A stretch of 64,000 nt of DNA from an uncultured Bacteroidia bacterium (GTDB lineage Bacteria > Bacteroidota > Bacteroidia > Bacteroidales > UBA932), in the NCBI GenBank assembly GCA_902785785.1, contig CADAAA010000006.1:38867-102866 (forward strand), written 5' to 3'. The notes beneath the pieces were generated by a model that saw nothing but the letters and a program-made list of their open reading frames with translations, was not told where the DNA came from and made no database searches. Shown here in pieces: positions 18,463 through 53,956 of this stretch. A program made the translations under genes and the position numbers. The stretch's first letter is position 1. Each line of letters begins with the position of its first letter.

Positions 18463-18466
18463 TGTC

Positions 18467-18550
18467 GTAGACGGTCCAAACCATGGACCGTCAAGAGCAT
18501 TTTAGCCCGTTTTTGCTTCCGACGGTCCAAAGTTTGGACCGTCGGAAGCA
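18467..18550 (-). repeat. REP-like doublet family A, orphan copy 1 (reverse orientation)
   Basis: GACGGTCCA-aacca-TGGACCGTC (18470-18492) and TGCTTCCGACGGTCCA-aagtt-TGGACCGTCGGAAGCA (18514-18550); centres 51 bp apart. Confidence 0.9.
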
Positions 18551-18623
18551 CTTTATGGGGGAAGAATACAAAAAAGGCTACCCGAAGAATATCGAAAGAA
18601 CAGGAAGGAACGTAAAATGGAAT

Positions 18624-19328
18624 CTACGGCAGGAGGACAGGGACGGCGTGGAGAAGGGGGGAAGAGGAAAGGTCCTGAGGATTGGTTCCCGGGACACCCT
18701 GAGGGACATCCGTCCCAAGACGGGTGAAGAGATCCACCCAATACTCCGGGTATTCGCCGTTCTCATTCTTGAAATTCATTGGGTTGCCGTCGAAGAGGCA
18801 GTGCCCGTCCTTGTCCAGGAAGCTCTCCTGAACGAGTTCGGAGCAATACATGGCTCCGTTGTCCGGAAGAAAATACTCATCGTAGGGCTGGCCGCAGAAG
18901 GACTTGGCAGTCTCGATCCATTGGCTTGCGAGACCGGTATCGTTCATTCGCTTGACAGTATAAACGGGGTTTGTGCCATCGTCGTAAACGAAGTCGCTGT
19001 AGAAGGTATCCAGCGGACGCCGGGAGACTCCGCGACGGGTAGTGGCGTCGATGACCCATACGTCGGCGCCGTCTACTTCGACCAGGGCGACGTGGATCAC
19101 GTCGCCCGTCGCGGCGGCGATGGCGCCATCCATCGACGACTCTTTTGCGTCGTGGCCCTCAGCCTGACTGACGAAGATCAGGTCACCGGTCTGCAGCCGC
19201 TCCTGCCGGCCGGCACCGCTGCGGGCTCCGCAGCCCGCCAAGGCCGCCAGCGGGAGCAGAACTGCCAATGCCGTTACCAAGGCAGAAGCCGGACCGGCCG
19301 TGGCTCGATGGACAATCTTTCTCTTCAT
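18624..19328 (-). CDS. YiiX/YebB-like permuted NlpC/P60 cysteine hydrolase lipoprotein
   Basis: GDLIFV, HVALV, IDAT..GV, G.PYD..F, YCSELV motifs; lipobox LAGC. Confidence 0.85.
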   Translation of the reverse strand: MKRKIVHRATAGPASALVTALAVLLPLAALAGCGARSGAGRQERLQTGDLIFVSQAEGHDAKESSMDGAIAAATGDVIHVALVEVDGADVWVIDATTRRGVSRRPLDTFYSDFVYDDGTNPVYTVKRMNDTGLASQWIETAKSFCGQPYDEYFLPDNGAMYCSELVQESFLDKDGHCLFDGNPMNFKNENGEYPEYWVDLFTRLGTDVPQGVPGTNPQDLSSSPLLHAVPVLLP

Positions 19329-19412
19329 TGTTTCAAAGATACTATCTTCTTGGCAAGTTTTGTGTATTGAAGGAAGAGTTTTATATTTGCGACCACTTAA
19401 AAACGGACTTTA

Positions 19413-24037: not shown

Positions 24038-24108
24038 GAGAGAGGAATCTCATCGCTTAATCGGACCGCATTGTGATTATGTGAAGTCCATCCGCTAGAG
24101 CAGGTGAA

Positions 24109-24192
24109 GTAGACGGTCCATAGTTTGGACCGTCTATAGCAAAAACGCCCCAAAATGACGTAGACGGTCCAAGTCTTGGACCGTCTACAGCA
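24109..24192 (+). repeat. REP-like doublet family A, orphan copy 2
   Basis: GTAGACGGTCCA-tagtt-TGGACCGTCTA, linker TAGCAAAAACGCCCCAAAATGAC, GTAGACGGTCCA-agtct-TGGACCGTCTACAGCA; 51 bp spacing. Confidence 0.92.
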
Positions 24193-29747: not shown

Positions 29748-30701
29748 ATGAAAAACTTTAGTTTTGAGCAAAAGGAAAAGGAACGGATCTCCTTTCATGA
29801 AGCAGAGACGGTTTGTGAATACCGTTTCTCGCAATCAGGCAAATGCTGGCATCTGTATACGCCTGAAGATTTTGAGATTATCTTTTCTGATGATGACGAC
29901 TTCCGGGCTGGCATGACCATTCTCGCACTTTGCGCACTGTCGTTTCCCGGAATCAGGATATTCACTTTCGAATGGATGAACAACCATCTCCATGTTACGC
30001 TTGCTGGTGATAGGGCGGAGATTGATTCCTTTTTCAAAATTCTGAAAGACATACTGGGAAGGTATCTTAAGAACAAGGGAAGGACGGTTTCTCTCAATTC
30101 CTGGAGCTATGGGTTACGCGCTGTCAATGACCTGAGGGATATGAGAAGCGTAATCGCCTACAACAACCGGAACGGCTTCCTCATCAACGAATCAGAAACG
30201 CCCTTTACCTATCCCTGGGGTGCTAACCGATTCTTTTTCAACAGATACGCTTTCGCGGAACATGAGCGCAGCACGGAAAGATTGAGAATCCGTGATGTCT
30301 GGAAAGAGTTCCATACGCGTGCCTTCGACAAGTTCTCCGGTCTTGTGATGCTGGACGGATATGTTTCTCCTCTGGAGTGTTGTCATGTCAGTGAAGCGGA
30401 AGGCCTGTTCCGCAACGCACATCAGTATTTCCATTCCGTCTCCAGGGATATGGATGCACAAAGACGGATATCCAAAGAGATCGGGGACAGGATCACTTAT
30501 ACGGATAATGAGATGTACAGCGCCGTAGCAGAACTATGTCGAACGACTTATAGTGTCACCGCACCGGCACTCCTGCCCAAAGAGGCTAAGGTCGAGGTCG
30601 CCAGAAAGATGCACTTCGACTATAATGCAAGTGAAAAGCAAATCGCACGGATCCTCAGGGTTGACCCCGGACTCGTTCCCTCGCTGCTGGCGCGGAAATA
30701 A
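29748..30701 (+). mobile_element. HUH/Y1 tyrosine transposase-like gene (RAYT/TnpA-REP-like) with C-terminal helical/HTH extension; cognate of family B arrays
   Basis: IFSDDDDF, MNNHLH (HUH), AYNNRN (catalytic Tyr), TYPWG; paralog of 52730-53590; visibly lower GC than neighbours. Confidence 0.85.
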
Positions 30702-52431: not shown

Positions 52432-52516
52432 CTGTCTGCGCAACTCCTAATGACATCTCTGTCATAGCGCCTGCAAAGATAATAGAAATGCTTCAAATGC
52501 CGTATATCCCCTGTCG

Positions 52517-52585
52517 TCTCCCTCCCCCTTCTTCTCCCCCTTCCTCTCCTCATCTCGCCTTCTCATTTCGCCCTCCTTTCCTCTC
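52517..52585. other. Polypyrimidine tract (plus strand)
   Basis: About 69 nt of almost only C/T, immediately left of the family A doublet. Confidence 0.8.
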
Positions 52586-52589
52586 AAAG

Positions 52590-52677
52590 TGCTGTAGACG
52601 GTCCAAAGATTGGACCGTCTACAGCAAAAACGCCCCAGAATGACGTAGACGGTCCAGCCCTTGGACCGTCTACGTCA
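52590..52677 (+). repeat. REP-like doublet family A, copy 3 (3-prime flank of the HUH gene)
   Basis: TGCTGTAGACGGTCCA-aagat-TGGACCGTCTACAGCA and TGACGTAGACGGTCCA-gccct-TGGACCGTCTACGTCA; two perfect 16 bp stems with centres 51 bp apart. Confidence 0.95.
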
Positions 52678-52729
52678 CTTCAGCGGCATCGACGGCATCC
52701 ATGTCAGATGGCGCAGTTACCGAAACTCC

Positions 52730-53590
52730 TTACCAACCGTCAAGCATCCGGGCGGCCTCTTCATAAGGGATACCGGTCACACGGCAGATTTGGTTGAGGT
52801 CCGCACTGAAACGGCGTCCGAGCTGCCGAAGCAACTCTGTTTTCTGCTCCACGCCCAAGTCTGAGATCCTGTTCGACCTAAATAAAGAGTGACACAGATC
52901 CTCGCTTGCCGAAAGGATATTCTGATCCCTGAAAGACGGAGCCGCTCCTCCTTCAAGCCTTTGACGGGCTTTGGAAGATGTCCTGAGGAAGTATCCCAAC
53001 CGCTTCGGGGTCCGGAACAGGGCTTCTACGCCCTTCACCTGTACGTAGGATTCCGGCAGGATATACCCTCCCGATCCTATCTTATAGTCTCCAGGAAGCA
53101 TGACATTGCTTTTCAGCATCCGCATCTGAGCCCTTCCAGAAAACTCCCCCAAACACCTCCCCGGGAAAGGGTTGTCATTAAAAAACACGTTCCCTGTCCC
53201 CCAAGGATAGCCGGAAGGCTCGAAACAGATGTTCGCTGCCACGCTGTTCATCAATACGTAGGCAATGGCCCTCTCAAGGGACTCGTCGCTGTCATTTACC
53301 TCCCTGATATCCACTCCGTTACGGCGCAGGAGCTCGTTTACTCCATATTTCCTGTAGAAATAAGAGGCATACAGGCGCTTGAACGTGTTAATGAACAGTT
53401 CCGCATCCTCACGGCTGCATGCAAGCACGAAATGGACATGGTTGGACATAAGGATGAATGCCAGAACCATTACTCCGGACAAAAAGGCTGCGACAGCCAC
53501 ATAGTTCATCGCCACGCGGAAGTCTTCCCCGTCCCGGAACCACAGGCGGTCTTCCAGATGCTCCGTCGTAATCAAGTAATAGTGTTTCAT
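52730..53590 (-). mobile_element. HUH/Y1 tyrosine transposase-like gene (RAYT/TnpA-REP-like) with C-terminal HTH-like extension; cognate of family A doublets
   Basis: WFRDGEDF, MSNHVH (HUH), AYVLMN (catalytic Tyr), GYPWG; no TnpB partner; no terminal IRs/TSD recognised. Confidence 0.88.
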
Positions 53591-53700
53591 AGTCAAGTCT
53601 GTTTAACGCCTGCAAGATAGATTTTGTGTCGGATACTCCAAGGAACCATAAAGATTCATATCGGGGTATTTCCACGTTTTTTATCTTTTTGTATTCTCGA

Positions 53701-53793
53701 AATGACATAGACGGTCCAGCAATTGGACCGTCTACAGCAAAAACGCCCCGAAATGACGTAGACGGTCCAGTCTGTGGACCGTCTACGTCATTT
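53701..53793 (+). repeat. REP-like doublet family A, copy 4 (5-prime flank of the HUH gene)
   Basis: TAGACGGTCCA-gcaat-TGGACCGTCTA and AAATGACGTAGACGGTCCA-gtctg-TGGACCGTCTACGTCATTT; 51 bp spacing. Confidence 0.95.
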
Positions 53794-53811
53794 GCCGACG
53801 GGGAAACAGCC

Positions 53812-53926
53812 GAGAGAGGGAGCGCGGGGAGAAGGATGGAGGAAAAGAGGACGGAGAGAGGGCAGAGAGAGAGGGCAGAGAGAGAATGGAAAAAGGGTGG
53901 AGAGAGGGACAGAAGGAAAAGAAAAA
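53812..53926. other. Polypurine (GA) tract (plus strand)
   Basis: About 115 nt of mostly G/A, including a tandem GAGAGAGGGCA repeat, immediately right of the family A doublet. Confidence 0.8.
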
Positions 53927-53956
53927 GTGCCGGGGGATGAACCCGCGGCACTTTTT
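53922..53956. terminator. Intrinsic terminator downstream of fusA2
   Basis: AAAAAGTGCCG/CGGCACTTTTT. Confidence 0.8.

Follow-up and report, generated by a model that had tools for sequence, protein, structure and literature searches.

A single-copy HUH-Y1 gene flanked by palindrome doublets in a rumen Bacteroidales genome: a probable REPtron-type system

A 64,000-nt stretch of the genome of a rumen Bacteroidales bacterium (hereafter the window, C6:38867-102866 of genome G000, which comprises 2.36 Mb in 12 contigs and has 56% G+C) carries a gene for a putative HUH-Y1 nuclease that lies between two pairs of palindromic hairpins. Together, gene and hairpins probably constitute a REPtron-type system, similar to those formed by repetitive extragenic palindromes (REPs) and REP-associated tyrosine transposases (RAYTs), that is, a vertically inherited, single-copy HUH-Y1 gene with its cognate flanking palindromes, plus ten other intergenic doublets of the same palindrome. 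In what follows, contigs of G000 are labelled C1-C6 etc., and contigs of other strains and relatives carry the letter L and a number.

The window contains eight exact copies of the core GACGGTCCA-N5-TGGACCGTC, starting at positions 18470, 18521, 24112, 24163, 52597, 52648, 53710 and 53761, which group as four doublets with a period of 51 nt. Dinucleotide-preserving shuffles of the window (n = 100) gave a maximum core count of zero. The loops of the eight hairpins (AACCA, AAGTT, TAGTT, AGTCT, AAGAT, GCCCT, GCAAT and GTCTG) are all 5 nt long and all different. Across the whole of G000, a search tolerating mismatches found 24 hairpins, arranged as 12 doublets of the same 51-nt period and no singlets; two of these doublets flank the HUH gene and ten are solo elements at other intergenic sites. 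Loop length was 5 nt in all 24 hairpins, even though lengths of 3-9 nt were allowed in the search, and 19 of the cores are exact, the remaining five carrying 1-3 mismatches. With reverse complements merged, the 24 loops reduce to 21 distinct sequences: GAAAA/TTTTC accounts for three occurrences, and GACTT and AAGTC are both found within a single doublet. An earlier note on the window, made from the sequence alone, had described four doublets with invariant arms and all-different 5-nt loops. All eight exact cores were recovered here, the statement on loops holds in the window and very nearly so genome-wide, and the genome-wide tabulation which that note proposed returned doublets only, with loops that have not collapsed to a few alleles.

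The hairpin stems exceed the 9-bp core, and are typically 16 bp and up to 19 bp in length (Table 1). Folded as single-stranded DNA (ssDNA), either strand of a doublet gives two separate hairpins of 16-19 bp with the linker between them unpaired (-34 to -41 kcal/mol, z of -10 to -12). The outer parts of the stems vary among the G000 copies and do so jointly on both arms (GCTGTA/TACAGC, GACGTA/TACGTC, GCCGTA/TACGGC, GCTCTA/TAGAGC and GCTTCC/GGAAGC), and copies differ in which side of the linker carries the GCTGTA-type hairpin and which the GACGTA-type. The outer ends of the doublets are inverted (AAGTG...CACTT), and in one polarity a T-run comes after each hairpin. A search of known RNA families returned only far-sub-threshold matches to microRNA-precursor hairpins.

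Table 1. Positions of the cassette, the solo doublets of the window, the adjoining tracts and the hairpins with inverted loops. Positions are those of the window unless a contig label is given.
Feature	Position	Strand	Details
Putative HUH-Y1 nuclease gene	52730..53596	-	288 aa from TTG at 53596; likely start is the ATG at 53590
Left doublet	52590-52677		Flanks the HUH gene on its downstream side
Left doublet, hairpin 1	52590..52626		TGCTGTAGACGGTCCA-AAGAT-TGGACCGTCTACAGCA; loop 52606-52610
Left linker	52627..52640	+	AAAACGCCCCAGAA; unpaired in ssDNA fold; on the coding strand part of ATTCTGGGGCGTTTTTGC
Left doublet, hairpin 2	52641..52677		TGACGTAGACGGTCCA-GCCCT-TGGACCGTCTACGTCA; loop 52657-52661
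Right doublet	53703-53793		Flanks the HUH gene on its upstream side
Right doublet, hairpin 1	53703..53739		TGACATAGACGGTCCA-GCAAT-TGGACCGTCTACAGCA; loop 53719-53723; outer stem imperfect
Right linker	53740..53753	+	AAAACGCCCCGAAA; same polarity as left linker
Right doublet, hairpin 2	53751..53793		19-bp stem, AAATGACGTAGACGGTCCA-GTCTG-TGGACCGTCTACGTCATTT; loop 53770-53774
Solo doublet	18463..18550		Same family (A) as the flanking doublets; between convergent genes; outer stems altered on both arms (GCTTCC/GGAAGC)
Solo doublet	24105..24192		Family A; between a TPR gene (-) and an ICMT/PEMT-like gene (+)
Pyrimidine-rich tract (at least 90% C/T)	52505..52586	+	Downstream of the HUH gene; purine-rich on the coding strand
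Purine-rich tract (at least 90% A/G)	53811..53937	+	Upstream of the HUH gene; pyrimidine-rich on the coding strand; same arrangement in L152 and L162
Loop flip	C1:463830		GAAAA in G000, TTTTC in some strains
Loop flip	C1:463881		ATCTG in G000, CAGAT in three contigs; linked to a flanking single-nucleotide polymorphism
Loop flip	C5:47956		TTTTG in G000, CAAAA in two contigs
Loop flip	53770-53774		GTCTG in G000, CAGAC in strain contig L077

The protein encoded between the flanking doublets is, as judged from its sequence and a structural model, an HUH-Y1 nuclease and a distant, two-domain relative of the RAYTs. Its N-terminal half has a TnpA_REP/IS200-like fold, with the motifs NHVH (H53 and H55) and Y113-x3-N117. 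H53, H55 and Y113 are invariant, and N117 nearly so, in an alignment of 32 homologues that includes paralogues at 20-29% identity, and the tyrosine motif reads YV(L)MN(S/C). The AlphaFold (AF2) model of the full protein has a predicted local distance difference test score (pLDDT) of 87.8, and its best PDB match in Foldseek is 4er8_A, the E. coli TnpA_REP with a REP hairpin bound, followed by the ISDra2, IS608 and IS200 transposases. A sequence search of the PDB gave weak IS200-type matches only, over the HUH motif (best E 0.08), and a PHROGs search gave no match. The C-terminal part of about 140 aa is helical and conserved; a Pfam scan of this region found nothing, and a separate AF2 model of residues 150-288, built on a 5-sequence alignment, was poor (pLDDT 48.9). 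Relatives of the protein are named only 'hypothetical protein' in the public records shown. At 50% identity, the family profile collects 16,478, 4,252 and 637 clusters at E <= 1e-3, 1e-10 and 1e-30, respectively. G000 itself holds ten further HUH paralogues, with 24-33% identity to the cassette protein, and Pfam Y1_Tnp is above its cut-off in one of the five G000 paralogues that were scanned.

The hairpins and the HUH protein vary together across relatives. The exact core was found in none of 40 relatives, of which 24 are species from the same genus. Homologues of the HUH protein are present in 25 of 60 genomes of the genus, with a best identity of 60%. Orthologues at 51-62% identity sit between doublets that have a spacing of about 50 nt and the same linker motif but unrelated stems (GGGGTGCC in L024, CGGAGGTGCA in L025, CCATGTGTGCCA in L029, TCGGTCGTCC in L033, GTTAACGTGCA in L034 and TCCAAGGTRC in L155). 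In relatives at 77-84% protein identity the loop-adjacent GGTCCA is kept and the outer stem is changed. The repeat family is lineage-specific and co-varies with its HUH orthologue. Across the sub-families the linker reads approximately ATTTTnnGGC(C/G)nTTTTTGC on the coding strand, and because this motif is retained beside orthologues with unrelated stems, the linker is the most promising candidate for the site that the enzymes recognise or cleave in common. At least two of the G000 paralogues also adjoin hairpin families of their own, GAACAAAA-N7-TTTTGTTC (about 15 copies) and GCACAAAA-N7-TTTTGTGC (5 copies). A second paralogue lies within the window (29748-30701 and flanks), and the hairpin arrays that adjoin it again have a spacing of about 51 nt.

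The cassette sub-family is single-copy in G000 and its position is conserved. The order EF-G, HUH, Peptidase_S51/ATP-grasp and then (where the contig extends far enough) aspartyl-tRNA synthetase (AspRS) was found at 98%, 84% and 83% protein identity. At 77% identity, in L103, the HUH gene occupies the same EF-G/ATP-grasp locus but is inverted relative to both neighbours (L103:700-1960), with a single intact doublet remaining beside it. An identical EF-G is present on 23 contigs, with a 286-aa gene at the HUH position; one place is listed and the other 22 are reported to have mostly the same neighbours. A 59%-identical homologue occurs on 22 contigs, in one other context throughout. A single copy at a fixed syntenic locus is the behaviour of a RAYT/REPtron and not of an IS200/IS605 insertion sequence (IS). 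All 12 G000 doublet sites have a counterpart that is filled in the strain contigs compared, and related genomes carry doublets at sites that are absent from G000. Public contigs with the gene are often only 1.0-1.5 kb long, or end 90-170 nt past the gene, and assemblies appear to break at the flanking palindromes.

The 12 G000 doublets were aligned to orthologous sites on contigs from rumen metagenomes and rumen Bacteroidales metagenome-assembled genomes (1-6 per site). Over the 12 sites, the flanks differ from G000 at 5.7% of positions overall. With loop inversions (flips) undone, variable columns make up 9.6% of the flanks, 7.5% of the loops, 3.6-4.8% of the outer stems, 1.2% of the linker and 0.5-0.9% of the core arms. 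These proportions put loop evolution close to the neutral rate, with arms and linker under roughly ten-fold constraint. The earlier suggestion that loops are unconstrained in sequence is borne out by these figures, with the qualification that their length is fixed.

Four hairpins carry the exact reverse complement of the G000 loop in some strains, with arms and flanks unchanged (Table 1). In a fifth hairpin the loop is flipped and also carries two substitutions; one further flip was seen at a site outside G000. Assembly artefacts were considered an unlikely source of the flips, as two of the exact ones recur in two to three contigs and that at C1:463881 is linked to a flanking polymorphism. 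Among 60 loops at 30 distinct sites there are 51 distinct sequences (reverse complements merged) against a random expectation of 56.1 +/- 1.8, and loop 2 is the exact reverse complement of loop 1 at two of the 30 sites, and within one mismatch of it at four (P 0.0006-0.03). In L155, which carries a 62%-identical relative, the doublets on the two sides of the gene, upstream and downstream, do not differ even in their loops. Two G000 doublets share the loop GAAAA, yet differ at four of five positions in their other loop. Copying of a doublet passes its loops on, and drift and flips follow. The alternative offered in the earlier note, that loops diversify at each duplication and could serve as a per-copy barcode, is not supported: at orthologous sites loops are stable save for drift and flips, they are shared more often than expected at random, and the duplicated L155 doublets have copied them. 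Hypermutation of the loops was likewise rejected, since their flip-corrected variability equals that of the flanks and duplicated doublets have copied loops.

Singlet alleles do occur among strains. At the site corresponding to G000 C2:56472, L058 and L089 have a lone hairpin, whose outer arms are mixed, and then a GA-rich stretch, and a full doublet is present in G000, L098 and L105. The singlet alleles look like decay products.

Loop inversions between hairpin arms are also seen in chloroplast non-coding hairpins. Template switching during replication is documented to invert loops and to change several bases of a stem at once in a compensatory manner (Monttinen and Loytynoja 2022, PMC8794818), and the complementary outer-stem variants among the G000 copies can be understood in this way. 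The flips described here resemble such events closely, with exact reverse-complement replacement of the loop between perfectly paired arms and multi-base compensatory changes in the stem. They differ in being frequent (four or five among 24 hairpins in close strains), and in that the linker and even the whole 1.2-kb cassette have also been inverted.

These observations suggest how a REPtron-type system of this kind might operate. A doublet would fold when exposed as ssDNA, most likely on the lagging-strand template, into two 16-19 bp hairpins with an unpaired 14-nt linker between them. The enzyme would read the stem sequence and the geometry of the hairpins, which would give invariant arms and a fixed loop length of 5 nt while leaving the loop sequence free. 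Cleavage and rejoining would proceed via Y113, with a metal ion bound by H53, H55 and N117, and each doublet would be copied or relocated whole. Recognition or cleavage common to the sub-families would most plausibly take place at the linker motif (coding strand, ATTTTnnGGCSnTTTTTGC). Loops would come to differ by drift at the neutral rate and by occasional inversion, as template switching at perfect palindromes would give, and the same process may also keep the arms perfectly complementary.

Among described systems, the closest counterpart is the REPtron, a RAYT/TnpA_REP with its REPs (for instance E. coli TnpA_REP, PDB 4ER8; classes 2.x of Quentin et al. 2018, PMC6006769). Shared features are the HUH-Y1 fold and Y-x3-N motif, a vertically inherited gene that is present once, with its own palindromes on either side and also scattered through intergenic DNA, and the co-variation of hairpins with protein, with several unrelated protein/repeat pairs per genome. 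The Bacteroidales protein differs in its length of about 290 aa with a conserved helical C-terminal half, in a tyrosine motif that is YV(L)MN(S/C) and not Y---NP, and in its repeats, which are long, perfect palindromes of 16-19 bp. RAYT classes 2.1 and 2.3, with C-terminal extensions of the helix-turn-helix type, have been reported without REPs, and the Bacteroidetes class 2.6 consists of proteins of about 179 aa with weak, atypical structures (Quentin et al. 2018, PMC6006769). The cassette would seem to work like a REPtron, and is best regarded as a new variant that is not a proven member of a described RAYT class.

There are also parallels with the REP doublet-forming hairpins (REPINs) of Bertels and Rainey (2011, PMC3116915). 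The doublet is the unit, its outer ends are inverted (each REP being a perfect palindrome, orientation within the doublet is otherwise undefined), the second loop is sometimes the reverse complement of the first, a RAYT-like gene is flanked by doublets, and singlet alleles resemble decay products. The spacer of a REPIN is less conserved than its REPs, whereas the spacer here is only 1.2% variable, near the 0.5-0.9% of the arms, and is conserved across sub-families. The CGTC-tagged REPs have a terminal unpaired CGTC tag, a stem of 8-9 bp starting with A/T pairs, and a short CCA-like tail (Di Nocera 2013). Membership of that group was rejected for the present hairpins, in which CGTC lies within the 16-bp paired stem and there are neither A/T first pairs nor a CCA tail.

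Several points weigh against a REPtron-type interpretation. The protein falls below the curated thresholds of the RAYT and IS200 models, scoring 35.3 bits against NCBIfam REP_Tyr_transpos (cut-off 80) and 15.2 bits against Pfam Y1_Tnp (cut-off 23), and is annotated as hypothetical. A REPIN folds as one long hairpin, but the doublets described here form two separate hairpins with an unpaired spacer, and their number (12) is far below that of typical REPIN populations. No clean pair of filled and empty doublet sites was recovered, the candidates being larger indels next to doublets. Template switching alone could also yield symmetric stem changes without any selection for pairing. Lastly, the earlier note had drawn attention to GTAG, the guide tetranucleotide of known RAYT-associated REPs, as being built into the palindrome. 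It is indeed there, preceding the core in 20 of 24 G000 hairpins (CTAC follows in 16 of 24), but it is paired inside the stem and is not conserved, GTCG, GTTG, GCAG or ACTG being found at this position in sister lineages, so a role as guide is doubtful.

The arrangement of the cassette could also be read as that of an autonomous IS200/IS605-like insertion sequence, with the same-strand doublets as its ends and the solo doublets as miniature derivatives or as excision or target joints. Like IS608 and ISDra2, it combines a Y1 HUH fold, matched by the TnpA structures of both elements, with subterminal hairpins on one strand and an adjoining single-stranded sequence that is the probable cleavage region. 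Both flanking linkers carry CAGCAAAAACGCCCC(A/G)(G/A)AATGAC on the plus strand around the open reading frame at 52730-53596 (minus strand), and so have the same polarity, T-rich on the coding strand. Same-polarity linkers are present on both flanks of six other cassettes (L024, L025, L029, L033, L034 and L155), and the one doublet found beside the gene in each of L103 and L156 has a linker that is T-rich on the coding strand. The in-place inversion in L103, the presence of homologues at 59-62% identity at other chromosomal loci, and the frequent breaking of contigs just outside the gene would likewise fit a mobile element. In L152 and L090, however, the downstream linker is inverted, with the order of the two hairpin types kept. 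The direct orientation proposed in the earlier note is thus real in G000 and six other cassettes and is common, but it is not fixed, and the resemblance to IS200/IS605 ends that was drawn from it has weak ground. Insertion sequences of this type would also be expected to differ from what is seen in other respects: there are no multiple identical copies (one sub-family copy per genome, with paralogues only 24-33% identical), the locus does not change in relatives down to 77% identity or on the contigs with an identical EF-G (n = 23, 22 of them reported to have mostly the same neighbours), neither end can be told from the other or from the solo doublets, and no tnpB gene is present. We consider an autonomous insertion sequence quite improbable.

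Alternatively, the doublets might be static host or regulatory elements, such as double-stranded operators for the C-terminal helical domain, bidirectional terminators or mRNA-stability hairpins, next to an HUH protein that no longer moves DNA. All sites are intergenic and several adjoin gene ends or hairpins of the terminator type; a T-run follows each hairpin in one polarity; the 51-nt spacing is close to five turns of the helix; none of the 12 G000 sites is empty in the strain contigs compared; and the protein does have an extra helical C-terminal domain. A static role is nevertheless unlikely in view of the lineage-specific repeat, with its core absent from 40 relatives (24 of the same genus) and its co-variation with the HUH orthologue, the conservation of the catalytic H, H, Y and N across 32 homologues down to paralogues at 20-29% identity, and the doublets of related genomes at sites not in G000; nor does a dimeric operator predict outer-stem bases that differ among copies and yet remain complementary. 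Active diversification of loops by the enzyme, in which a cut in or near the loop followed by re-synthesis would randomise or invert it and so tag each copy, appears highly improbable. It would accommodate the eight different loops between identical arms in the window, the occurrence of four or five flips when only 24 hairpins and few strains were compared, and the two doublets that share GAAAA while their other loops differ at four of five positions. On the other side, with flips left out of account loops and flanks are equally variable, loops are unchanged across strains at most sites and are shared above the random level, the duplicated doublets of L155 have identical loops, and ordinary template switching accounts for the flips (PMC8794818).

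A broader proposal, which we put forward tentatively and regard as doubtful, places the cassettes in an unclassified, large, Bacteroidales-centred clade of two-domain HUH-Y1 proteins. The shared substrate would be the conserved single-stranded linker between sub-family-specific hairpins, and a doublet would be the minimal end-to-end joint. Enzyme activity at doublets might also drive inversion of linker and cassette and the gain or loss of adjacent genes, and the flanking tracts, of constant polarity with respect to the gene, might help to expose ssDNA.

The tracts in question border the cassette on both sides (Table 1). Only 14 tracts of at least 90% purine or pyrimidine over at least 40 nt occur in G000, and eight of them are within 700 nt of an HUH paralogue or a doublet of the cassette family (about 0.3 expected). 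Tract sites beyond the cassette are C4:219445, C5:137427, C5:147939, C6:118858, C6:158831 and C6:57497. The seven tracts beside an HUH gene share their polarity, being pyrimidine-rich upstream and purine-rich downstream on the coding strand. As a family-wide feature the tracts were rejected, as they are absent beside homologues in 17 other species of the genus.

Structural breakpoints fall at doublet ends. A 790-bp segment with a Peptidase_C92 gene (window 18557-19345; C6:57423-58211) begins a few bases past the end (CACTTTATG) of the solo doublet at 18463..18550, and in L114 this segment is absent and about 60 nt are found instead. In L124, the point of divergence from the other strains is precisely the AAGTG end of a different doublet. 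At C2:195190 in G000, the stop codon (TAG) of one gene is directly followed by the ATG of the next, but the two genes are about 530 nt apart in the related contig L044 (L044:6283-6811). The intervening insert opens with a hairpin, a linker and a second hairpin that is truncated, and on the other strand it has coding sequence for a small protein of about 120 aa. Adjoining the doublet at C1:463830 is a tandem run of three terminator-like hairpins (C1:463939-464090; stem TCCTTCGG, 7-nt loop), and its copy number seems to vary among strains, judging by repeated BLAST pieces in L043, L096 and L116.

To our knowledge, REP/RAYT systems have been worked out almost entirely in Proteobacteria. The rumen Bacteroidales family described here shows the full signature of a REPtron with a different repeat design, consisting of perfect palindromes, phased doublets and an unpaired linker that is conserved across sub-families. 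The palindromes would explain the assembly breaks at cassette sites, and there is a useful negative in that invariant arms with all-different loops need no special mechanism, as drift, template-switch flips and constraint on the stem suffice. A sizeable protein family (4,252 clusters at 50% identity, E <= 1e-10) lies under the annotation 'hypothetical', and the doublet with its linker provides a concrete substrate prediction for biochemistry. Recognition of the family would also make the annotation of many Bacteroidales genomes better.

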